Origin: Piedraia hortae CBS 480.64
Lineage: Eukaryota
NCBI GenBank assembly: GCA_010093745.1
Contig: MU005982.1
Location: 1-64,000 of the forward strand
Length of the DNA: 64,000 bases
Direction of reading: 5' to 3'
Shown piece after piece: positions 1-51,198 of the stretch (position 1 is its first letter; each line of letters opens with the position of its first letter). The translations under genes were made by a program, and so were the position numbers. The notes under the pieces are model-generated. The model was not told the DNA's origin. It was given only the letters and a program-made list of their open reading frames with translations, and did not search any database.

Positions 1-325
1 AAAGACATGTCCGACCAAGGTCTTGTCTGTTGCCAGGCTCAGAGCGCCCTGCAAGTCAGCGTTCCATGCCTCGAATGGCGTTCCAGCCTTGAGAATGACA
101 GCTCTTTTTCTTTCGTAGCTCATGGTCTCTGGAAGCTCCGCTTTCGCTTCGAGACTCAATTTGAATAGCGCTTGTTAGCGGTAGAGCCCGGGCTCATAAC
201 CTATTATAATTGTGAGCAGATGTGTACCTGCATACAAATCTCTACGGAAAACTAGTTGACGCGTGAAGTCGAGAGCCGAGCGACGGTTACTAATAATGCG
301 CGTAATATACCGCATATTCACAACA
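1..325 (-). mobile_element. 5' end of a Ty1/Copia LTR retrotransposon (family B): 124-bp LTR 325-202, PBS 201-190, gag start at 123; truncated by the window edge
   Basis: The minus strand reads TGTTGTGAAT...CACAATTATAATA, followed directly by GGTTATGAGCCC, a copia-type PBS for half-tRNA-iMet priming. An open frame MSYERKRAVILKAGTPFEAWNADLQGALSLATDKTLVGHVF then runs to the edge. The same LTR recurs at 24318-24441. Confidence 0.8.
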
Positions 326-663
326 GTACTTGCATAGCAAGTCAGCGATACCTCCTACACTACCAGATGCACCCCAGGTTTTTCCTTCACAGAGGATTTC
401 CCTCAGGGTCATGTCATATGTGACATGGCGAATGCGCCCTGCTAAAGTACGACGTGACGACAACGGCCCACTGTTACGGAATTTTTATTCTGAACGTCCC
501 CTCACTTTAAGATATATAGTCGTTCACACTGTCATATCGTTACTGGTATTTACTCCTACCCACCTGTATCTTTCCTGTTCCTGTCGTTTGAAATTCATCT
601 ATTGCTATGTCCTCCAAGTTTGGGCCGCTGTGCACTTCCATTTAGGAGGGTACTATCGCAACA
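326..663 (+). mobile_element. Family A LTR, 5'-truncated by the Copia-B insertion
   Basis: Matches 6379-6738 from about nt 37 onward (TGCATAGCAAGTCAGCGATACCTCCTACAC...) and ends CGCAACA. Confidence 0.8.
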
Positions 664-967
664 TATTTCGTACTAAACGGTCGCACTCGATATTGTGGGG
701 CGCGCCTGTTCATCGCAACTCATTGGGTGAGAAGTTTTGCTTTGCTACGCAGGGAATGCCCAGAATTTTATCTTGACTGCAAATTGCCAAAGGTCAACAA
801 TATGAGGCGTCAAGGGCCGCTATGAAACTGTTCAGTCAGCCGACAAATAGAACTGCCCTTGATCTTGCGGGAGTCTCTAAGTAAATGCTAAAGAAAAAGC
901 GCAAGATGTGGGTGTTACCGCGCGGACTATGCTATCCTTACAACGGTGTTGTGCCTTATGGAAGAGC

Positions 968-1327
968 TGTAGGTATTTAGCTCTCGTGGGTGAGAGTGCA
1001 CAGCGACCCGAAGAGGGCGGAGCGATAGACGGAAACAGGGACAGGAAAGATGTAGATGTGTGTAAGTCAAAATACCAGTTGCAGCATGGTAGTGTGAATG
1101 ACTATTTTCAATAAGGGGACGTTCAGAATGAAAATTCTGTTCCGGTGGGCCGGTGACGTCACGTCGTACACTAGCGGGGCGTATTCACCATGTCACATAT
1201 GACATGACCCTGAGGGAAAACCTCTGTGAGGGAAAAACCTAGGGTGCAGCTGGTAGTGTAGGAGGTATCGCTGACTTGCTATGCAAGTGCCCTGCATACG
1301 CGCTAGCGGCGATGCTTGAATCCAACA
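968..1327 (-). mobile_element. Solo LTR, family A (360 bp)
   Basis: TG...CA termini, exact 5-bp TSD AGAGC (963-967 / 1328-1332); reverse complement of 6379-6738. Confidence 0.92.
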
Positions 1328-2392
1328 AGAGCTAGCTATGCTATGGGCTGGAGGTGAGGTATCGGGTCACGTGGCTGCGAAATGGGTTTTTGACAGTGGG
1401 AGAGCGAGGAGCCTGTATGTTAGACCAGAATCGAAGACGTTCTCTCGGACTCGTTCCATAACAGGTGCTTTCCGATCATGCCCGATCGAGTAAGAAGAAA
1501 GACAATGCTGCGCGATAACCTAACCCCCCATCTCAACTTGGCGGGCTTGAAGATCAGGAACCGCCATCGTGCTAGCTTCAAACTGTAAAGTTAGAAAGGC
1601 AAAGAGCCCACGATCAAACCTTCGCCGAACGATTTACTCGCCCTACTCGACCCGTGTCGTCGTTGATGGTGCGTCCTGGGAAGCATCGGGGTGTACCATC
1701 TCCTAGTCCTCTAGTATCACTTCCAGGCCTGATCAATTTTGTGCCCTAAAATATTTATGCACGTGTCCTCTTAGTATCCTGCAACACTCTTCTTGAAGTT
1801 CTCGAGACGTGGGCGCAGGTAAGTGGCCACCTGAGATGCCATTGTTACTCTCTGCGACGAGATTAGCATGCAACAGCGAACGTCTCCATTAATAAAGGAT
1901 TTGAGATCCAGTTAATCCCAGATTTTTCAAGTATGTCAGCGCGCATGTTAGATCCATAATCCAAGCTCGTGCAATTTCTATATATATGGCTGAACGGAGG
2001 GCCGTTGTCGCCGCACTCTCTCTGACTTTCAATCAGATTCACATGATGTAGAAGTTCACATTGCGGCCGCTAACGGGAAGGTGCGCTAGCTTTGCCCCTC
2101 ACAGGTTGCTGGGCGGAAAAGAGCAGGCGCGTCAACACACAGCTACGTCGAGCTCAACTGCCCCTCTCAACCAGCTCCACTAGCGTCCTTCGCTCTCATA
2201 AATTGACAGTTCTTCTCCATTCTCTTCTCCATCCCCTTCTTCCTCCATCACTCTACTTCTACCTCTTCATCACAGTCATCCTGCAACACTTGTCATTACC
2301 TCGTACACTCCATCAGAGTCTGCTCTTCCATTATACGCCCCTCCTTGACTCCTTGGGTCCGTCGTGCTGACGCTTTTCCAGGCATTGTTACA

Positions 2393-4191
2393 ATGTCCGA
2401 CGTGAAGAGCATGTACCCTCGCTCCGGCAGTACTGGTCATAACGTCTACGGTCCGCAGCAGCAGGACTCCATGCACCCATACGGCCCTCGCGCTACTTTC
2501 TTTGGTGGTCTGGGCCATGCCATGCCCGCTGGGGTGGCAGCACTAGCTCACGGATTTCAGGGGATGAATGTGCATCCCGCACCATTCGCCTCGAAGAACG
2601 CTATGGTTGTCCCCAATACCGGGTATCACGGCGGGTATCCTGGAACGACTCCCTATTTTCCGGGTGCGTTTGTCGACAATGGAAAGTACACTGCTCCGCA
2701 TGGTACTGCTGTGGGGCCACCTCCAGAATTATATGCTCCGCACGTTGCTCCAATGGGGTATCCCGCTTGTATGGCCCAAGATATTAGCCCCCTATCCAGT
2801 AATCGCTGGACGCCCCCGACTGGAAACAACCACGAGTTGCCCGCTCTTACACCACGACAGGGCTCCGTGTCGTCGAACGAGAACGACCAGCCTGTCACGC
2901 CGTCTTATGCCAACATTCCGCGCTTTGTAACCGCAAACTTCTATCGCCCTCCCAGTGGCCCATTTGCCCATGGAACTCCGTCTCCGATGTCCATGATTCC
3001 TCCCTTTGGGTATGCAACAGTCAAGCCCCAGGAAGACAGCAACGTGTCGCCGCATATCAAGATGCTTGTTACGAGGGACCCCGCAATTCCACCAGCAATT
3101 CCTGCGCCATCATCCCCTTTGAAACCTTTGGACCGCGCTTTAGAAAACCAGCGTGGTGAAACAAATGTGTATATTCGTGGCCTTCTGCCAGAAACAACTG
3201 ACGAAATGCTAGTAGCCTGGGCTGGACGATTTGGAGAAATAAATAGTTCGAAATCCATCATTGATCTTAACACAGGCTTTTGCAAGGGGTAAGGGCTGGC
3301 TCAGAATATGGGCCATGGCTAACAATTGCAAGGTTCGGATTCGTGAAGTATTTCAACTATACGGACGCTGAAAACTGCATCCGTGGCTTCCACTACCTCG
3401 GGTATGAGGTCAGCTTTGCTCGGGTCAGTTGTAGTCCTTTGCGGTTTTTCTGAATTTGGCTAACCACTTCCAGGAATCCTTTTACTCCAAACTTAAAACT
3501 TTCGCGGATGACCGAAATACCAATCTTTACATCTCCAATCTTCCCAGAACCATGAATGAGCATGAGCTTGCTCAGCTTTTTGCGCCTCACAAGGTGGAAT
3601 CTACCCGAGTTTTGCGCGACAGAAATGGTCATGGGCGTGGCGTTGGCTTCGCAAGGTCAGCCGACATCATTGACACTGCAATCGCTAACAGCGAATGATA
3701 GATTCGAGAGTAGAGCCGTATGCGAAGATGTCATCAAGACATTTGGCAATCATGCCTTACAGGCAGGCGACGAAGAGTTACAGATACAAATTCGGTTCGC
3801 AGACACCCAGGAGCAAAAGGCTCTCAAACAACAAACACAGGCTGCAAGGCTCTTTCGCTCTGCGGAGTATGAGTATGCTACCCAGACCTTGCGCCAAGGT
3901 GGGCTATCGCTCCAACCTGGTAGCCAAGATGGCCCTTCTAGCGACTTTAGCCAGTATCTGAAGACGACAGCACCCGCAACAACTGTCGGACAACCCTCGA
4001 CCGTTCATGTTCCACGAATATTCACTGAACGAAACTCGTTTACTTTGAGCGCCTCTGCCTTTCCACCGCTTCCTTCTGTGGCCGGCAATTCCGAAACGAC
4101 TTCCGATTACGCCAAAAAAACGCATGATGATTCCGCCGTCAAGAATCACTTGAGCAGCAACGAAGCGCCCTCTGCCCCGGAGCGCAATTAG
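2393..4191 (+). CDS. Two-RRM RNA-binding protein, Spo5/RBMS(MSSP)-like; exons 2393-3288, 3333-3423, 3474-3655, 3702-4191
   Basis: RNP2/RNP1 motifs TNVYIRGL...CKGFGFVKY and TNLYISNLP...GRGVGFARF, restored by three GT-AG introns (44, 50, 46 nt) with GCTAAC branch sites. Long P/G/Y-rich low-complexity N-terminus. Confidence 0.88.
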
Positions 4192-6378
4192 AGGCCAGAT
4201 TATGATGACTTTGCGAAGAAAAAAAACGGTTGAAAAGGGAAGGTACGATGCATCGCTTAGCATTCATGGTGGGAGAAACTTTTGTTCAGCCTTTTCCCGG
4301 TCGAATGTTCTTGGGGAATGTTTATCTTGCAGGCAGTTTTCGGGCAAATGGAGGGCTTTGATTTATGGCATATATTAAAGTCTCTGCAGACTATATAATG
4401 CGAGTATTATAGACTTTTGGCACGTAATAGTATCTACAGTGCTCTACAAGTAGTTTGGCGTGGTGAACAGGGCTTTAATTAGAGCATAGCTTGTGAAAGC
4501 CCAATAGCATCATGACAAGGGTGCAAATTATGACGCGAGGTTCTTCGTTGACGTGGCCTATTCGAGTCTGGTTTCCCGCTTCGGCCAATCAGAAAGAGAC
4601 TTGCTCCGTTTTCTAAACCAGTGTATGAATGGTGCGGGAAATGAAGAGCATAACAAGTCTGTTTCATTCGCCGAACCGGAGATCTAGGCCGAGATAAGCA
4701 CTATACCAATAGACCACTCATCTAACGCGAGTATAGGCCGTTCCGAGCGGGTTTGACTTTCTGCTTGGATGAAAATGGATTTCGTGGGAAAAGTTCAAAG
4801 TCCATACTTATTTCAAGTCTTTTTACCTACATTTCTAGGTCGTAGTCATTACTTCTTGCCATCTACAGGAGAGGTCTGTCCACGAGGTGCGATAGTCATT
4901 CATGAAGACCAGACAGGGGTTCCTCCTTATAACGCAAGTATGTCCTTTGTTGATCTTTCAAAACAACTTCATCGCCATGTACGATATCAAGGTATTGTAG
5001 TCGTTGAGATGGGGTATTATCTTGGGTGGAGTGTGTTCAGCTTGATCCCGCGTTTGGGAGGTGGGGTATGAAGCTGGGGAGCTGGCTGGATGGGGACTTT
5101 GAGGTCTTTGAAGAGGAGGGAGGGATGCAAAAGGCTTGGACTTCATGTTTGCGGAGTTTAATGATTTTAGAGAATGATCTCTTGCTCTGGATGCGATTTT
5201 GACTCTGGACTCTCTGTGCTATAGTATAGTTGTGGGTTCAAATTCTGATCTCCAGGGAAGCTTTTCGGGGTGGAATTTTGTCACCCTCAGCCTTGGTTTG
5301 AGTGGAATCCAGCTGTAGCTTGACGTTGACTGGCCCTATATTTTGCTTGAGAGGTTCAGGATCATGAGTCGTCTAATTCCTGGTCGGGAGTTGTGACTTC
5401 CAAGCATTTATGCTTGGGTGTTTGGATTTTGAAGACAGCCAGGTTCTGCTCAAGATATTTGATCTGTGTCTTGAGAATCTTGGTGGTATGTCTGCTGGAT
5501 AAAAGCTTCGACTCTAAATATTTCATATTTTGGATATCCTTTAGAAATTTGAAGGTTTAGTTACTGCTCGCGTTGTGGTATCGTTGTCCTCGGACAGAGA
5601 GACATTTCCTGGCTGGCTGCTGGGTTCTGTTCCTGTTCATTGAGCAGTTTAAATGTTCGGAACCGGGCACTGTTTTATGAGTTCTCATAGATTTTGAAAA
5701 AAACCTCTGCGAGGTTTAGGCCTGGAACCTGAAGTTCAACGTTTTCTTTTGTAAGCTTCCCATCCGGAGACTCAGTACATGTATGTGCATACTCATTCCT
5801 GTCGTGCAGGAATTCCAGCTCTTGCTAAGTTTCCTCTGCAATTTTGGATCGTCTTCGCATCTCCTTTCTTTCTTCTTGCTAGGTTCAAGTCTGCACACCG
5901 TGAAATCCCGCCTTCCAAACCGTTGACGCAGGTTCTGATTCTCCCCGATGTCTCTGCATCATTCCCATCTAGGGATTTTACGATCCTAGGAACACCCCCA
6001 GGTCATTCATAGGCATCATCCGACCCTAGCTTCATTTGTTATCCAGATTGTTTGTTTACCTGCGCAAACTTACGTTGCTTGTCCTGGAGACCCTCCTGCC
6101 ACTGCCTCATTTTGATGTTGTGTATTAGCGCCCGTGGTAGTGCAGCTAACTGTTTGCTTCGCGCGTTTTGAAAAGGTTGAAGACCGTGTGAGCAAGTACT
6201 AGTTGCTTAATATTACCTAGCTTGCTCTTCAACTAACTTGTCTCCCAAATGATATCTTATCTATGGACCCGAAGTACTTTAGTGAGTCTCGCCAGAGCCT
6301 GATAGATCTCGCCATAGCCAATAATCGACTTCACTGGTGGCAGTAGCCGTGGCAGCGGCAGTTGACTAATGTTTTATT

Positions 6379-6738
6379 TGTTGGATTCAAGCATCGCCGC
6401 TAGCGCGTATGCAGGGCACTTGCATAGCAAGTCAGCGATACCTCCTACACTACCAGCTGCACCCTAGGTTTTTCCCTCACAGAGGTTTTCCCTCAGGGTC
6501 ATGTCATATGTGACATGGTGAATACGCCCCGCTAGTGTACGACGTGACTTCACCGGCCCACCGGAACAGAATTTTCATTCTGAACGTCCCCTTATTGAAA
6601 ATAGTCATTCACACTACCATGCTGCAACTGGTTTTTGACTCAAATACATCTACATCTTTCATGTCCCTGATTCTGTCTATCGCTCCGTCCTCTTCAGGTC
6701 GCTGTGCACTCTTACCCACGAGAGCCAAAATCTCTACA
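6379..6738 (+). mobile_element. Solo LTR, family A (360 bp)
   Basis: TGTTGG...CTCTACA with exact TSD TTATT on both sides. Confidence 0.92.
6461..6499 (+). other. Putative ENE-like RNA structure (stem / U-rich internal loop / stem-loop) in the LTR
   Basis: ACCCU-AGG UUUUUC CCUC ACA GAGG UUUUC CCU-C-AGGGU; conserved with covariation in other LTR families of the window. Confidence 0.6.
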
Positions 6739-7251
6739 TTATTGCATCATCCTTGCAGCGAAGACTGTCGATTGACCTGCTCCGGGCCTTCTTGCGGCTG
6801 AGCCTATCTAAAGGTAGTTGGTTGCGCAAGCTCTTTTTTCATAACTGGTTTCCTCAATCCATCGCAAAGGTTCGACCTGACTAAGTTTTTTGAGAATCGC
6901 AATTGTCCGTTTGTATAGTCCTTCATCAGCTGCTTGGTTACGAGTTCGACATGCTTGGTCCAAACACCTGTGTCGGCGATAGCAGCGTGAAAAACTCATG
7001 CTGACGAGGGCCATGATACACCGTCTCAGCGTAGTCTGCTACAAATCGAAGACAATCTGCTAGGCTGGAAGGTTTCCCTGCAGAATGTCGTTAGTGAGGT
7101 CCAAGGGGGGTGGCAATTTATTATAAGTTTAACGGCTAGATTGGTTCCCTGCGAAAATTCCGGCAAAGAAACGTGCGAGGCAGGTTAAGCACAGTGTGGA
7201 GACAACATACGTGCTCTTTCTGGATGCCAGTCGGTAAATCGTCGCGCTTTT

Positions 7252-7538
7252 TGTTGGATAAAGTTGGCATGAAGCCTCGTTGCTATGAATACGAAAGCAT
7301 ATATGGCTGGAATTCTCAGGGTTTTTACCTCACAGAGGATTTTTCCCCTGGAATGTGGTCATGTCACATGATGTGATCACGGCGAATGCGGCTCGGACTG
7401 TGCCGGAACATGGGGCACCCTCACTTCCTCGACACCACAAATACAATAAGACAGAACAACTCAATGCATGAGCATAATCACGGATACTGTTCTTGTTCCC
7501 ACTCTCCGTGTCCATATTGCACATGACGCTGCGTTACA
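7252..7538 (+). mobile_element. Diverged LTR related to families A/C (ends approximate)
   Basis: Starts TGTTGG, contains GTTGGCATGAAGCCTCGTTGCTAT (like family C) and the CAGGGTTTTTACCTCACAGAGG...CCCCTGG core; no TSD seen. Confidence 0.55.
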
Positions 7539-8940
7539 TTACCACCTCCAAATTATCAGATAATCTCTGTGAGTATTGTCCTCATTGCTTGCCCTACTCG
7601 TTCCAGAGAAATTTAACCTTTGAGTCATGGCAAACTCTAGGAAGCAATATATCTCTCCACGATCCGTCATCTCTCTGCAGAGAGGAATATAGTGAGTTTC
7701 AAGTCAATGCAATTGAGATTAGGGCTCTCTAAACGAACTGAACTAGACCCCGACGTGAAATTCGAGATTAGTTTGATCACAGATTCATCAAATGAAACAT
7801 CTTCGGGCTGTAGATGATTTAAAAGAAAAGGTCATCGTGACTTTCGGTGCAGTGGCGACTTGTAAAAGCGAAAAAACCCAACCACACAAACACAAATGAA
7901 AGCTGATTGTTTTCGTGAAAATTCCCTTCTTCGTTTGTTGGAAAGATCGCGCCACGCTTTGAGAGACTCGCAAAGATCCTAGATCGACGCATATGTTTCT
8001 AACTAGGGGCTCCAACAGTTCATACTGTACCGATAAATGTCTGGAAAGCAAGAAGGACTGAGGCAGACTTGTTCCTGGTTGCCGTGGCCTCATCATCTCC
8101 AACTGCATTCGACGGCTCGTTAGGAGCGGCCGTCACTGACGAACAAGAGAGACTTCAAACACTGTGCGTTATTTGGTATGACCACTCGCCAAGTGAGTAC
8201 AAGTGTATGCCGTTCTCGGTTGATTCCTAATCAGCTGACATCAGCGAAAGAGCTACCTGGATAAAATATTACCTGCCGTGCAGCTGCGAATCCTCTCATG
8301 AAATGTTTTGGCACGGTGACCGATCCTTGCCAATCATTTAGCTTGTAAATCTGGGGGGCTAGTGTGGTGGTCCTGATTCTGGCAAGAAGCGAAGCATCCG
8401 GCGCGAAATATCACTTGGACATACTCAGCCGAACTTGCCACTTTCATCCCAGCAGACACAAGCTAGATTCAATCCGGACGATCCCTCTTTCACTGGCATC
8501 TGCAAGAGCAGTGCCGGAGCATCTGACTGCTGATATACGATCACTTGTTGAAACGAGCCCCAAGCTGGCATCTCGTCATCGTTTCGATGAATGTTTCGAG
8601 GGTCAAGCAAGAAACACAAGAGAAGATGAAATTGCGCAACGAATCCGACGAAAGAGCCAAATGTGCTGTTGCAGTTATCTGCGATGGTCACGGTTCTTGT
8701 TGGGCTACTCTCCTTGGTAGGATTCGCTTGGGACAAGGTGACGCAGCTCCATCCAGATCAGCGCACTTCTATGGTCCGCACAGTATGATGCACCTGAAAG
8801 GCTAGCTAACCAGCTATTTTCATGTGACAGCTGCCCCTGCAGCCCCGCGAAGCCCACAGCCACCACCGCGGCCAATATTCACAAACTTCCTCGCACCTTC
8901 TCAGCCTCATCAATCTCTTCATCCGACAACTCTCCTTCCA

Positions 8941-12396: not shown

Positions 12397-12758
12397 TGTT
12401 GGCATGAAGTCTCGTTGCTATCAGTGTACGATGCCACTGCGCGACACCTCTTACACCAGCAGCTGCACCCTAGGTTTTGTCCTCAAATCAGGGCCATGTC
12501 GCATACGCCATGGTGAATGTGCCCTGCTACTGTTTGAGGTGAGTCATGGAGTAAGGCTGCATGTTGACAGTCTTACTGCATATATAACCACTTGCTTACG
12601 GTCATACAATCGATGACCCTTCATACGAGGCTATGCACGGGCCTTCCAGCCCAGAATATATTCTCTGATGTCCCCTCGTAGATACACTAGTATTCACTCA
12701 TAAACACATCTCTACTCTCCATCCATCGTTCTCACTAGTACATACCATCTGTTTTTCA
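12397..12758 (+). mobile_element. Solo LTR, family C (internal deletion in the ENE-like core)
   Basis: TGTTGGCATG...TTTTCA; homologous to the reverse complement of 39605-39974; flanks do not form a TSD. Confidence 0.8.
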
Positions 12759-23664: not shown

Positions 23665-23758
23665 TTTTGGCATGAAATCTCGTTGTTATGAGCGTACGAT
23701 GCCACTACGCGACACCTCGTACACCAGCAGCTGCACCCTAGGTTTTGTCCTCACAGAG
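23665..23758 (+). mobile_element. 5' fragment of a family C LTR
   Basis: TTGGCATGAAATCTCGTTG...CAGCTGCACCCTAGGTTTTGTCCTCACAGAG matches the start of 12397. Confidence 0.75.
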
Positions 23759-24206
23759 AAATCTTGGAGACATTGTTAACCTCCATCCGGCAAACTCAAA
23801 TCCTCAATCAAGAGCTTGCCAAGCTATTCCAGACTCGATTCCCCAGCCGTCCACATGCAAAAAACAATTTGCCGCCTTTGCGCCGCAGTAGGTCTCCTCT
23901 CACCACTCGCGCCCACAATCCGCATCAAAGGATTGGAAGCCGCAAGACAGAGAGCACTGCAAAGCACCGCGCTGGTCAATTCCCTGATGTTCTTCCATGT
24001 TCGTATCGAGCGACTTGATTGACATACGCTCCATATCCCCGCATGCAGATTCCATCCAACCGCATGGGTTTGTCTTGCCGCTGAATTGCTTGGTTGCTTT
24101 TCCTGCTCTTTTTTTGCTCGGTCTTGTCTTTGGCCTCGTCTATGTCTGCTATTATGCTGCCGGAGGCGCTTGTCGAGCCGGCCAATGTTTCCGCGCAGGT
24201 GAATGG

Positions 24207-24678
24207 TGTTGGATTCTAGCATCGCCGCTAGCGTGTACGCAGGGCACTTGCATAACAAGTCAGTGATACCTCCTACATTACCAGCTGCACCCTAGGTTTT
24301 TCCCTCACAGAGGTTTCTGTTGGGAATATGCGGTATATTACACGCATTATTAGTAACCGGCGCTCGGCTCTCGACTTCACACGTCAACTAGTTTTCCGTA
24401 GAGATTTGTATGCAGGTACATATCTACTCACAATCACAATAGTTTCCCCCCAGGCGAATGCGCCCTGCTAGTGTACGACGTGACGTCACCGGCCCACCGG
24501 TACAGAATCTTTATTCTGACGTCCCCTCATAGAGATAGATAGTCAATTCACACTGTCATATCGACACTGGTACTGACTCATATACATCTACATCTGTCCT
24601 GTCCCTGATGCCGTCTATCGCTTCGTCCTCTTCGGGTCGCTGCGCACTCTTACCCACGGGAGCCCCCAAACCTCTACA
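24207..24678 (+). mobile_element. Solo LTR, family A, carrying a nested family B solo LTR
   Basis: TGTTGG...CTCTACA with exact TSD AATGG; insertion at 24318-24441. Confidence 0.9.
24318..24441 (+). mobile_element. Solo LTR, family B (124 bp)
   Basis: Reverse complement of 202-325 (about 8 substitutions); exact TSD GTTTC (24313-24317 / 24442-24446). Confidence 0.88.
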
Positions 24679-28835: not shown

Positions 28836-31467
28836 AGCTTATGAAGCCAAGCATCTAAATATCCGAAAGGAGAGGCTATCCGTGCTGGAATGCAAAGAAC
28901 CAAGATATTTCAGGGGCCTATCTACGAAGCGTTACACGCGACCGAGCGGCGAGGACAGTCGGCTAAACGCTACTAGGTTTGGAATGGAAGGAGCTTGGGG
29001 GCAGAAACACGGCCATACACGATAGCCCACGACGGAACCGCCCTTTATAAATTTGAAGCTACTGAAAAGCAACATACATAAAAGGCTTCAGAAAGGCTTC
29101 AACCAACAGGTAAAACCAGTTCGCCAGTTATGGCAAGCCATTGAGGCGATAAACTCGTGGCGAAGATATCTACCACGACTCTGTCCTCCCTGCGCCGGGA
29201 TTTACGACAAACGAAGCAAGACAACCGATCCGTTACATGCTCGGAAGAAGGCAACTACGATGGAGCGTTTGCCGTGGCAGTATGCTTTTAAACCGCCCTA
29301 AATCCCTATGGATGGTTGAATATCACACAGACAGGGCAAGCCCTACAGGCTATACAAAGTTGCACCTCTGAGAGGCATTCAGAAGAAGCACGGCAAACCG
29401 TATGGTTTGTACACTGCTGGCTTGTGGAGGATCCCAAAGTTCGACGAAAAAGCCAAGTCTCACGAAATCCTCAACGAATTGTCCCCTCGCCTGTCTGCTT
29501 TGTCAACCAGTACTTTGACCACGGCCTGGCAACTTTTATCAGTTTGGAAAACCAGAGAGAATCAAACTCGGCAAAGACGGCGCACAGAATGCTTAACAGA
29601 TCCGTTTCTCCCGGATGGCTGTCGTCTGGAGACAAAACCAGACCCGGTTCGGACCAGTCGACACTGTCAGAGGCTGCGCTCGCTCCATCGTTCCCAGGGC
29701 TACCATTCTCGAATGAATAAATCCCGTTTTGCTTCTGCGTCAGTGAATCAGACACCCCACCTCTCGCCAATCCCTAGCAGAAGCTGGTAGCTGGGAACGC
29801 TAGTCGATGTGATGGACGCCATGGGCAATAAGAACGAAAGCACGGAGGTGACTAGAAAGCTGGGAGCACAGAGAATGATTCAAGCCATTAATAGCATGAA
29901 GACTGGAGTTGAAGGCACAGAGACATGGGTTGAACAGGGCAAGGTAGCCTCTGAACTGGAAACGAGACAGACCAAGTGTCGGAGGGGTGAACCTCCGAGG
30001 ACTAGGGCGGAGTGGATGTCAACGACAAAGGTTTTCACTCAACTTTTACTGAAAGATGTGTAATGTAGATGTTTATCTCTATGAGGTGAGGTTCGAAATC
30101 TCCCCCACACTACCTCAGTCTAACCGCACTTGCCAGGACAACGTCAGCGAACCATGCCCTTGAGCATGAACGAGACAATAACCCGTCTCAGGGAAGACTT
30201 CCTCTATAGAAGTAAAAACCCTGAGAAGTTTCGACTTCTATCTATAGTTCTGGTCATGGTGGGTGCCACATCCTTTTGACACCAAGTCTTCATAGCCACT
30301 CCTAAATGGAGACAAGAGAGGCCATCGACGTAACGGCCTCCAGCTACCAATAAAAGGCCGGCAGAACAAGACAATGCCAAACCGAGCAAGATACGCAGGA
30401 TACACCATGTTTACATCATGGCGGCAGAGTCAGCAATACGAGTCGCGATCAGGAGTTTTATCGCATGGGGAAACGGCAACATGAAAAGGATCGTGAAAGT
30501 TATTCGGTCGAACATTGAGTCTGCGCTGTTGTCTACGGAGTTCAAAATCTGGCTAGCACGACAGGGAATTGAATCTCTGCCCTCCGCACCGTATACTCCC
30601 GCGCAAAACGGAGCAGCAGAAAGGTCGGGTAAAATGATAACTACAAAGGCACGGGCGATGCGCTTAGGTGCAGGGCTACCAGTTTACCTCTGGCCCCTCC
30701 CGGTGCAGGGTGTAGCTTACCTGTTGAATCGTACACCCGTAAAGACACTCGACTGGGAAAGTCCATTGGACGCTTTAAATCAGAAGCCAGAAACAATAAC
30801 GCATCTAAAGGCATGGGGGTGCAAAGCCTACCCATTAGTGCATCTTATCCCCCGCACGCACATGCAGGAGCCTCGGGTGAATATAGGGTATCTGGTCGGA
30901 TGCAGATCCCGAAATAGTTTCCGATTTGGATTCCCAAGCTGCGTAAAATCATTTGTTGTTAAGAAGTATCGGTGCGATAACTCGGCTTGATAACAAAGAC
31001 TATACAAATTAAAATCCTGTGTAGCAAAATACTCAAGGGGCATAGAAAAGAGGACAGTGGGGCAACGGAGTAATATTTGAAACTGTTTGAACAAAGAAGC
31101 CACTTGTGTATGAGCTCACTGCTGGACATCTAAAAAGATGTTTTTGTAAAGAGAACTCAATCTTCACAACGATCACACTACGCAACAATTATCTTCCAAT
31201 ATCATTGACACAACAGACGTAATGTTTGATGAACGTGTTACTTATGGCATCGAAGAAGAGTGTGAGGAAATACTCCCACTGGAAGTCATGAAGAACATCG
31301 TTGAAATGGTCAAATTGCCTACTACAGGCGAGACAACCATTGACATAGGTGACGATTTCTCCGACTCGAATTTGGACAATGAAGAAGAAGTTCCTCCAAA
31401 CTCTAACAACAATCACGAGACAAGATCCGTCGCCAGAAGAGTCGAAGAGCTTTTTAGGATTGAGTAA
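28836..31467 (+). pseudogene. Degenerate Ty1/Copia internal region; integrase core best preserved at 30490-30930
   Basis: VKVIRS...EF...GI...SAPYTPAQNGAAERSGKMI...LP..LWP.....AYLLNRTP...HLKAWGCKAY is the Copia integrase signature; VMFDE lies downstream. A possible decayed PBS at about 28836 and gag-like fragments upstream are less certain. Confidence 0.75.
30064..30255 (-). mobile_element. Partial LTR, family E-related
   Basis: Similar to 31541-31730; contains the CTCAGGG...CCCTGAG core. Confidence 0.65.
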
Positions 31468-31509
31468 TTGGGAGCTCGCCAAAAGTGACAACAAGATCTA
31501 AAGGGCAAA

Positions 31510-31776
31510 TGTGTGCCCCCAACTCTAATGAAGAGGTGGTTGTAGATGTCTATATCTATGAATTGAGGTCGGAAAAAACCTTCTCCACATTATCTGAGCC
31601 TAGCCGCATCCGCCACGACAACGTCATTGAAACATACGAGAACATAAGCGAGACGATGACCCGTCCCAGGGAAGACTTCCTCCAGAGAGGTAAAAACTCT
31701 GAGAAGCCTCGACCTCTATCCATGCTGGTAGAGGTTATCGGGCTGTATACTGCATAAGAGGGTTTACCTTCTCACA
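31510..31776 (-). mobile_element. Solo LTR, family E-related (about 267 bp)
   Basis: Ends GGGTTTACCTTCTCACA like 37581-37847 and has the same length; strand inferred from the U-rich core. Confidence 0.7.
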
Positions 31777-33125: not shown

Positions 33126-33498
33126 TGTTGGATTCAAGCATCGCAGTTAGCGCGTATGCAGGGCACTTGCATAGCAAGTCGGCGATACCTCCTACACTAC
33201 CAGCTGCACCCTAGGTTTTTCCCTCACAGAGGTTTTCCCTCAGGGTCATGTCATATGTGACATGGTGAATACGCCCCGCTAGTGTACGACATGATGTCAC
33301 CGGCCCACCGGTACAGAATTCTCATTCTGAACGTATCCTCATTGATTGAGATAGTCATTTTCACACTGTCATGTTGACACTGGTATTGACCCATATCCAT
33401 CTGCATCTGTCCTGTCCCAGTTGTCAATTCCGTCTATCGCTTAGTCCTCTTGGTTCGGGACGCTGCGCACTCTCATCCAGAGGAGCCCAATCTCTACA
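33126..33498 (+). mobile_element. Solo LTR, family A
   Basis: TGTTGG...CTCTACA with exact TSD GAATT. Confidence 0.92.
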
Positions 33499-37355: not shown

Positions 37356-37427
37356 TGCCTCCATTCAGGTTTGAACTGAAGACCTCGGCATTACAAGTGC
37401 CGCGCTCTACCACTGAGCTATAAAGGC
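37356..37427 (-). tRNA. tRNA-Thr(UGU), intronless
   Basis: GCCTTTA TAGCTCAGTGGTAGAGC G CGGCA CT TGT AA TGCCG AGGTC TTCAG TTCAAAC CTGAA TGGAGGC A folds as a full cloverleaf; T8 Pol III terminator at 37346-37339. Confidence 0.95.
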
Positions 37428-37580
37428 TTGGCACATGTTGACAGGTAAACTGTTTTCAATTTATACAAATTCAACAATTGCCAACTTGGATTGCCAAGAT
37501 AGATGCAACCTGGCAACTAGACTATACAAGTGGCCCGAGAGATGCATGCATCTTCTTTCAGATTAGTACAGGCAATAGAG

Positions 37581-37847
37581 TGTGAGGCGCATATATGTGT
37601 GGCTATGTGGTGGTATGTATATGTTGAGGTGGTGAGGTGAAGTGCGGAACTTCACTTCACGCTGACCCAGGTCTAGCGGCATTCAACGAGGCAACGTCAC
37701 CGAGCACGCTCAGAGTATGAACGGCACCGTGCCTCGTCCCAGGTAACTTCCTCCAAAGAGGTAAAAACCCTAAGAAGCATCGACCTCCATCTAAGCTCGT
37801 AGATGCGATCTGGTTGTGTACTATATGAGAGGGTTTACCGACTCACA
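37581..37847 (-). mobile_element. Solo LTR, family E (267 bp)
   Basis: TGTGAG...CTCACA inverted termini; homologous to 49837-50092. Confidence 0.8.
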
Positions 37848-39604: not shown

Positions 39605-39974
39605 TGAAAAGACAGTATGTACGAGCGAGAACGATGGATGGAGAGTAGAGATGTGTTTATGAGTGAATACAAGTATATCTTCGAGGGAACATCAGAGAAT
39701 ATATTCTGGGCTGGAAGGCTCGTGAGTAGCCTCGTATGAAGAGTCATCAATTGTATGACCGTAAGCACGTGGTTATACATGCAGTAAGACTGTCAGCATG
39801 CAGTCTTACTCCATGATTCACCTCATAACAGTAGCAGGGCGCATTCACCATGTCGCATGCGACATGACCCTGAGGGAAACCTCTGTGAGGACAAAACCTA
39901 GGGTGCAGCTGCTGGTGTAAGAGGTGTCGCGCAGTGGCATCGTACACTGATAGCAACGAGACTTCATGCCAACA
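39605..39974 (-). mobile_element. Solo LTR, family C (370 bp)
   Basis: TG...CA termini, exact TSD CTTTT. Confidence 0.9.
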
Positions 39975-49003: not shown

Positions 49004-49364
49004 TGTGGCGATAAGATGGGAATGCGCAGCGGCCCCAAGAGGACGAAGCGATAGACGGAAATCGACAACAGGGACAGGACAGATGCAGATGAATATAAGT
49101 CAATACCAATGCCGATATGACAGAATGAATGACTATCTATCTCAAAATGAGGGAACATTCAGAATAAAGATTCTGTACCGGTGGGCCGGTGACGTCACGT
49201 CGTACACTAGCAAGGCGCATTCGCCACGTCACAGATGACATAACCCTGAGGGGAAACCCTCTGTGAGAGAAAAACCTAGGGTGCAGCTGGTAGTATAGGA
49301 GGTATTGCTGACTTGCTATGCAAGTACCCCGCATACGCGCTAGCGGCGATGCTTGAATCCAACA
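49004..49364 (-). mobile_element. Solo LTR, family A (361 bp)
   Basis: TG...CA termini, exact TSD GCGGT. Confidence 0.9.
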
Positions 49365-49836: not shown

Positions 49837-50092
49837 TGTAAGGCACATATATGTGTGACTATGAGTTTATGTTTGTGTTGAGGTGAAGTTCCGCACTTCG
49901 CCTCATGCTAACCCAGGTCTAGCCGCATTCACCGAGACCACGTCACCGAGCACGCACAGAGCATGAACGGCACTGCAACTCGTCCCAGGGAAAACTTCCT
50001 CCCATGGAGGTAAAAACCCGGACAAGCATTGGCATCTAAGCTCGCAGATGCGACGTGACTGTATACTATACGAGAGAGTTTACCGTCTCATA
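49837..50092 (-). mobile_element. Solo LTR, family E
   Basis: Homologous to 37581-37847 along its length. Confidence 0.8.
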
Positions 50093-50987: not shown

Positions 50988-51198
50988 TGTGAAACGATGG
51001 AACCGATAGCAGTGTGTGATATCGTAACTATCAAGAAAGAGGAAGTGAGAGGAAGATTGGTGCGCAAAAACTGCCCCACATTCCGGCACGACCCAAACCA
51101 CATTCGCCGTGATGTACAGTGACGTGCAACCACGTCCCAGGGAAAGCATCTTCTGTGAAGTGAAAACCCTGGGAGGTCCGGTACCCTAGCTACCTACA
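50988..51198 (-). mobile_element. Diverged LTR related to 7252-7538 (ends approximate)
   Basis: Shares CACATTCGCCGTGAT and the CCCAGGG...CTTCTGTGAAG...CCCTGGG core. Confidence 0.55.

Follow-up and report, generated by a model that had tools for sequence, protein, structure and literature searches.

ENEs are described as stem-loops with a U-rich internal loop beside G-C pairs that take A-minor contacts, and their site is given as near the 3' end of a polyadenylated RNA (PMC7583470; this paper and the others named here are cited from excerpts, and what we say of them extends to those excerpts). The KSHV PAN RNA ENE, itself about 79 nt long (PMC13541005), forms five U·A-U triples, and G-C pairs of its stem take part in three A-minor contacts (PMC7583470). 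ENEs of plant and fungal transposable elements have been in print since 2016 (Tycowski, Shu and Steitz, as referred to by the citing papers PMC7583470, PMC12501189 and PMC13541005), and the same three papers back the statement of the first-pass annotation of this DNA that ENEs are known in plant and fungal retrotransposons. About 200 ENEs have been predicted in plant and fungal transposons, most of them tied to LTR retrotransposons (PMC12501189), and some transposon ENEs are embedded in the 5' and 3' LTRs (PMC13541005). The ENE of Evade/Copia93 from Arabidopsis raises RNA stability and mobility by blocking CCR4a deadenylation, and its triplex forms only if the U tracts as well as the G-C pairs beside them are intact (PMC12501189). 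Function has been demonstrated for about ten ENEs, none of them fungal as far as the excerpt of PMC7583470 states.

The DNA analyzed here, a stretch of 64 kb that we refer to as the window, contains a module of 39–45 nt that recurs in LTR-type repeats. Like the ENEs of plant and fungal transposable elements, some of which also lie in LTRs, it is a stem-loop with a U-rich internal loop beside G-C pairs; unlike most plant transposon ENEs, which are double-domain (PMC7583470), it has a single domain, with an upper hairpin of 4–5 bp. Evade is a Copia-type LTR retrotransposon, the type presumed here too, with U tracts and flanking G-C pairs, and for the module this likeness is read from the sequence. 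The family B copy of the module shares with the KSHV PAN ENE a U5/U5 loop and a GGG/CCC lower stem, and the core letters of the two are presumably closely alike. The PAN ENE, however, has a far longer upper stem-loop, and the 3' tract of the module has fewer than five U in most copies. Among the literature listings searched, none was of a paper that describes an ascomycete LTR with an ENE. The module is at best a new, unusually small single-domain candidate of the known ENE kind.

The feature itself is real and conserved, and an ENE function is plausible. We tentatively read the module as a conserved and selected structural element of related ascomycete LTRs whose likeliest single function, at rather less than an even chance, would be that of a minimal single-domain ENE-type RNA element. 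In this case, transcription through the U3 of the 3' LTR would place the module at the 3' end of the polyadenylated RNA of the element, with strand and placement as presumed below. Both U tracts of the loop would then take up a stretch of poly(A) as U·A-U triples, the adjoining G-C pairs of the lower stem would take A-minor contacts, and deadenylation-dependent decay would thereby be slowed.

The module at 6461–6499 and its host LTR

The module at 6461–6499 (+) occupies positions 83–121 of a solo LTR of family A (6379–6738, +), which is 360 bp long, ends in TGTTGG…CTACA and has the 5-bp TSD TTATT on both sides. The outer stem consists of 8 bp and one bulged C, the internal loop reads UUUUUC on one side and UUUUC on the other, and the inner stem of 4 bp (CCUC/GAGG) carries the loop ACA. 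A second hairpin with a perfect 7-bp stem, a 4-nt loop and CATATG inside follows at 6500–6517 (+), and at 6518–6527 (+) lies a GGYGAATRCG block, the second conserved block, which is common to all LTR families (identity 0.65 over 20 columns). The first-pass annotation had placed a stem, a U-rich loop and a stem-loop at this site, and both the sequence and the MFE fold agree with it: the MFE fold of 6459–6519 is exactly the proposed structure, with -21.1 kcal/mol and z = -2.62, and only 2 of 200 shuffled sequences were as stable. The second hairpin had been described as a companion of the module; it is clear in A, C, B and G, and only in those types.

When the window was searched against Rfam at the gathering score, tRNA alone was matched, and at E ≤ 10 the region 6300–7500, which holds two copies of the module, gave a chance miRNA hit only; for both searches, the presence of an ENE model in Rfam 15 is unconfirmed.

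Copies of the module in the window

A covariance model (R1) was built from ten distinct copies and run unfiltered on both strands of the 64-kb window. It found 12 intact copies at 47–58 bits (E ≤ 6e-10), among them the hit at 6459–6502 with 54.2 bits; three of the 12 are identical, which leaves ten distinct sequences. The next-best match was a truncated copy with 25.5 bits, and everything else scored 15.9 bits or less. The intact copies measure 43–47 nt as matched by the model and 39–45 nt as the whole hairpin module, and three further copies are damaged, being cut or deleted. Every copy sits within an LTR-type repeat (types A, B, C, E, F, G and H), and in every family with a defined TG end the module starts 62–82 nt from that end. 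All copies named in the first-pass annotation (~385, ~30200, ~49260, ~49995, 51136–51173 and 7322) were located, and those at 39864–39906 (-), 31661–31706 (-) and 37734–37777 (-) come in addition to its list.

Two more family A copies, at 1204–1247 (-) and 33206–33249 (+), are identical to 6459–6502 and lie in the solo LTRs 968–1327 (TSD GCTCT) and 33126–33498 (TSD GAATT), respectively. Diverged family A copies are found at 369–412 (+), with an inner U·G wobble, one C/A mismatch in the outer stem and the 3' tract AUUU, and at 49240–49284 (-), with an inner stem of 5 bp that includes a U·G pair (solo LTR 49004–49364, TSD ACCGC). The family C copy at 39864–39906 (-; solo LTR 39605–39974, TSD AAAAG) has the 5' tract UUUUGU and the 3' tract UUU, and its second hairpin carries a compensatory change from A-U to G-C. 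The family B copy at 7312–7356 (+), in an LTR that starts at 7252, has U5 on both loop strands, is followed by an 11-bp hairpin, and is the most ENE-like candidate among the copies.

In the type G copy (51132–51176, -), the inner stem is changed to CUUC/GAAG in a compensatory way, the outer stem is a perfect helix of 8 bp, and the 3' loop strand reads AUGCUUU. The type E copy (49980–50026, -) has an inner stem of 5 bp, the 3' loop strand AAGUUUU and a 2-nt bulge in the outer stem, and the type F copy (30183–30228, -), with the 3' loop strand AAGUCUU, belongs to an LTR that is truncated on the TG side and borders on a fragment of a Copia integrase. Type H is represented at 31661–31706 (-), with one A/C mismatch in the outer stem and an MFE fold that lacks the module, and at 37734–37777 (-), with the decayed 3' tract UUA and two U·G pairs. 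The LTR of this last copy (37569–37847) lies about 140 bp upstream of a tRNA-Thr(TGT) gene (37356–37427, -), an arrangement reminiscent of certain yeast Ty elements, whose targeting is directed by Pol III.

The damaged copies are at 24287–24329 (+), where the module is cut after the inner stem by a foreign segment of 129 bp (24317–24445), and, for family C, at 12465–12497 (+), where it has an internal deletion, and at 23733–23773 (+), where an LTR fragment ends within it. The 129-bp segment occurs twice (24317–24445, +, and 198–326, -; 93% alike, with TGTTGGG and TGTTGTG as starts). Both times it adjoins family A LTR sequence, but the junction sites differ and the orientations are opposite. 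The occurrence at 24317 has taken the place of about 31 nt, among them the second hairpin and the 3' half of the module, and the composite LTR (24207–24678) still retains the exact TSD AATGG.

Conservation across the LTR families

Exact 5-bp TSDs flank all five full copies of family A and one of the two copies of family C, with TGTTGG…ACA as ends, and the family A copies with defined ends are solo LTRs; none was found when TSDs were sought for the LTRs of types B, E, H and F. The module-bearing LTRs, about 360 bp in length, are probably of the Ty1/Copia type, as we infer for the superfamily, and none of the LTRs in the window has an internal region (PBS, pol in Copia order, PPT) attached to it.

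We aligned seven family representatives, leaving out A379, A49274 and H37777 against over-weighting of clades. Mean pairwise column identity was 0.27 over the LTR and 0.55–0.68 in the 20-column windows of the module, which is the best-conserved block of the LTR, at 2–2.5 times the LTR average. The sole other conservation peak (0.65) is the GGYGAATGCG block, 20–75 nt downstream of the module. As GGYGAATRCG, this block is present at the equivalent place in every LTR type, for example at 7382–7391, and its reverse strand reads CATTC. The statement in the first-pass annotation that the families otherwise barely align is nearly correct in view of the mean identity, but the families are related and also share this block, a TGACGT motif and TGTTGG or related ends.

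Sharing between the families is mosaic. Families A and C have in common about 114 nt around the module (86%), B and G about 104 nt (76%), and B and C only the terminal ~30 nt, the places concerned being 7252–7290, 39935–39974 and 12397–12440. This suggests an exchange of blocks between LTR families. The mosaic sharing also fits a further reading, in which the single-domain ENE of 39–45 nt moves as a recombining cassette (module, second hairpin and GAATG block) between otherwise unrelated ascomycete LTR families and is occasionally given to host transcripts as a stabilizer through solo LTRs that supply poly(A) sites; we give this extended version little credence. Solo LTRs may more generally scatter a portable stabilizer; since a U3 module lies upstream of the LTR's own start, a solo LTR would bring it into RNA only by read-through from outside.

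Other dispersed repeats in the window, with 78–90% identity, lie outside the module-bearing LTRs (11972–12200/51359–51584, 34466–34636/61552–61720, 34174–34355/40263–40436 and 26344–26476/27835–27966).

Internal loop and closing pairs

The MFE fold has an outer stem, an internal loop and a short hairpin, that is, two helices flanking an internal loop, in nine of the ten distinct copies. The loop is closed by a G-C pair on the lower side and by a C-G pair on the upper side, each in 9/10 copies. In B, E, F and G, the three pairs on the lower side read GGG/CCC, in A and C they read AGG/CCU, and the upper stem has only 4–5 bp. A single DNA strand supplies U-rich sequence to both sides of the loop; this would not result from a plain DNA palindrome and counts for an ENE.

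The 5' loop tract is U5 in eight of the ten distinct copies and U4 in the other two. For the 3' tract, counted as contiguous U beside the lower stem, the numbers are five U in one copy, four in two, three in four and two in three copies. This tract is short or interrupted in types E, F, G and H. In three of these (E, F and H), most of the loop can be closed through pairing of the 5' U tract with an AAG spacer. The U-rich internal loop said to be shared by the families is thus well kept on its 5' strand but reduced on its 3' strand, where 7/10 copies have two or three U. In the same way, the ENE architecture ascribed to the module is borne out by the helices, by the G-C closing pairs and by their conservation across diverged LTR families, but the 3' U tract is weak. 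The 5' U tract is much better kept than the 3' tract, an imbalance more in keeping with a sequence-specific site than with a symmetric clamp.

A DNA-level element as an alternative

Such a site would be expected if the module were a DNA-level cis-regulatory element of the LTR promoter or enhancer in U3, with its hairpin potential as a by-product. The GGG-T5-A/C-CYTC core, the partial tandem repeat and the nearby dyads would then be TF sites or T-tract elements that exclude nucleosomes. We consider this explanation possible but doubtful. Besides the decay of the 3' tract only, it is favored by the 5' half of the module, which is near-invariant beyond what pairing alone demands, and by the surroundings: the module lies amid short dyads and site-like motifs (CATATG, CAGCTG, CAGAAT/ATTCTG and the GGYGAATGCG block), a palindrome of the TGACGTCA type is perfect in three of six family A copies, and the TGACGT core is found in most families. 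The dyads near the module (TGACGTCA-type, CATATG and CAGCTG) we take to be sites of known type. The first 225 nt of the A LTR contain 13 dyad motifs against 6.4 expected (reached by 38 of 1000 shuffles), as expected of a U3, and dyads are also enriched in the C LTR (5/1000), but the B and E LTRs show no such enrichment. The family A module is at the same time a tandem direct repeat with a unit of about 14 nt. However, types G, E, F and H no longer resemble such a repeat and yet keep the pairing. It also speaks against a DNA element that compensatory changes at four pairs keep complementarity while the sequence changes, and that the arms of the outer stem are 27–33 bp apart, which is unusual for one dimeric site.

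Pairing and covariation

The z-scores of the folds range from -3.89 to +0.59, and in six of the ten copies at most 4 of 200 shuffled sequences fold as well. Pairing was evaluated in a model-fitted alignment (A4), which leans towards structure. In this alignment, 91.7% of 120 cells keep their pairing, compared with 83.8 ± 1.9% when the letters of the 3' side were shuffled (0 of 500 shuffles reached the observed value), and when the partner was slid by 1–3 columns only 42–64% of the cells paired. The helices are clearly conserved.

The covariation score was 0.333 versus 0.207 in shuffles, again reached by 0/500, on a cell-based measure that is inflated by shared ancestry. Four pairs are altered on both sides (UA 6/AU 4; AU 5/UA 3; CG 5/UG 4/UA 1; CG 7/UG 2/UA 1). 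Counted as such, these two-sided changes are not significant, since shuffles gave 2.9 on average and 143 of 500 reached four. On a small tree, about 4–5 events account for the double changes, and two of these events do no more than set the A/C clade apart from the other copies. Because shared ancestry inflates the cell-based measures and double-change events are few, covariation is suggestive, and on the measure least inflated by ancestry it is not significant. The covariation of the stems proposed in the first-pass annotation can accordingly be traced to the compensatory CUUC/GAAG of type G and to the four two-sided pairs, but their number is not significant.

Non-Watson-Crick pairs were counted with the bulges of the MFE folds in place, namely the bulged C in the A and C rows and the bulge of 2 nt in the E row. 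There are eight G·U, three C/A and one G/A cells. Wobbles had been stated to occur only on the U-rich strand, which does not hold, as the three C/A cells would be wobbles on the other strand. The ratio of G·U to C/A (8:3; one-sided binomial p ~0.11, with events that are not independent) leans weakly towards the U-rich strand, and folding gives a tie between the strands, the antisense strand being equally or more stable in 5/10 copies.

Orientation of the LTRs

An ENE requires the U-rich strand to be the RNA strand, with the module upstream of the poly(A) site. We give the U-rich strand a chance of about two in three of being the sense strand. No full-length element was found in the window, and Pfam searches of 12 and then 147 stop-to-stop ORFs returned a single retroelement piece, a Copia-type integrase fragment (30334–31467, +; SH3_retrovirus, E = 9e-6) without gag, protease, RT or RNase H. 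Base composition is not decisive on orientation. No PBS motifs were found beside the LTRs, chance-level matches being confined to places away from them, and PPT-like flanks were uninformative, as the E, F and H copies have purine-rich runs to either side. The Pseudoviridae terminal consensus TGTTRNR…YNYAACA (PMC3601003) fits either orientation, being an inverted repeat. Further likenesses to the LTRs studied here that this source describes are TATA-type motifs, and inverted repeats in the 5' part of the Sire U3. The Sire repeats pair with sequence outside the LTR around the PPT, whereas the hairpin of the module is self-contained and has U-rich loop strands.

Several hints favor the U-rich strand as sense. 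Of the five full family A LTRs, four have INR-like TCAKTY motifs on this strand, and none has them on the reverse strand. The first 225 nt of the A LTR are enriched in dyads, as a U3 would be, and a pyrimidine-rich tail comes after them. We also count here the Ty1 5' integrase motif, given as TGTTGGAATA in the excerpt of PMC3601003. A hint in the opposite direction is AATAAA, which occurs on the reverse strand in two of the five family A LTRs. R and U5 are usually better conserved than U3 (PMC3601003), and since the module lies in the conserved half of the LTR, this would point to the R-U5 of the opposite strand.

These last observations are what would be expected if the module were a structured RNA that serves a different purpose and is perhaps read from the opposite strand, which we consider unlikely. 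With the TGTTGG end as the U5 end, the module would stand about 60–100 nt before the end of the LTR in R-U5, with A-rich internal loops, and could act in reverse transcription, packaging or dimerization, or occlude a poly(A) signal. If read from the U-rich strand instead, it might enhance 3'-end processing as a U-rich upstream element, or serve as a hairpin for protein binding or export. The folding of the antisense strand is compatible with the opposite-strand form, and so is the Copia integrase fragment. This fragment is boxed between LTR F (30015–30245) and LTR H31 (31495–31776), both of which have their U-rich strand on the minus strand, opposite to it. We considered F and H31 as the LTR pair of one Copia element, which would make the module antisense, and rejected this, as the two share only 74% identity and are not sisters. 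Since one of them is nearer to a third copy (81% identity), we read the arrangement as nesting. The opposite-strand form is further disfavored by the wobble ratio, by the INR-like motifs, and by the TGTTGG/CCAACA end, past which no copy has a PBS.

Finally, it is quite improbable that the module has no present function and is an inherited block of one LTR lineage, spread by recombination and seemingly conserved since the copies are few and related: the ten distinct sequences from two or three clades, the non-significant pair count, the several decayed copies and the solo-LTR state of all family A and C copies with defined ends would agree with this, and pure inheritance fits so small a sample, but not the 2–2.5-fold excess conservation across barely alignable families, nor do the fixed place near the TG end and the substitutions, which avoid the stems or compensate, speak for it.

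Significance of a possible ENE-type module

Should the module function as an ENE, a retrotransposon of a filamentous fungus would possess a natural poly(A) clamp of very small size, of use as a compact RNA-stabilizing tag and as a case for how fungal transposons resist deadenylation-dependent decay. The module would also be an example of one RNA module being retained while the remaining LTR turns over. If it is a promoter element instead, it marks the conserved regulatory core of these LTRs. Either way, the kind of element has already been described, and the gain is therefore incremental.

Genomic setting and occurrence in other data

The sequence of the window is eukaryotic. Between the scattered LTR-type repeats lie ordinary genes for an aspartyl protease, a phosphopantetheinyl transferase, a WD40 protein and CCDC47, and the clusters nearest to the protease belong to Ascomycota.

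A pattern made from families A and B had no match in a metagenome collection. A wider pattern matched 11 metagenome loci, none of which resembled the LTRs of the window by blastn except for a chance match of L010 elsewhere; it had no match in viral contigs, and its five loci in prokaryotes were taken as chance. The Copia integrase, used as a query against viral contigs, found no relative. Two unrelated metagenome contigs, L003 (591–619, -) and L009 (128–156, -), share with the module a GG-U5-CCCUC-loop-GAGG-U4/5-CCC architecture, with no coding context around the motif in the available stretch.

Run X1 is the sole public run with part of the stretch (its kind is guessed; it was used as contigs and holds 0.08 of the words). 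Within positions 1–8000, it covers only the LTR parts, at high summed depth, which indicates that the LTRs are repeated in that organism. For the copy at 1189–1247, the differences listed include three within the module and second hairpin, all at unpaired positions, and nine in the adjoining 75 nt. In the bin 1–267, the summed contig depth of X1 is about 525,000, about 100 times that of the family A LTR bins, so that something there is extremely abundant.
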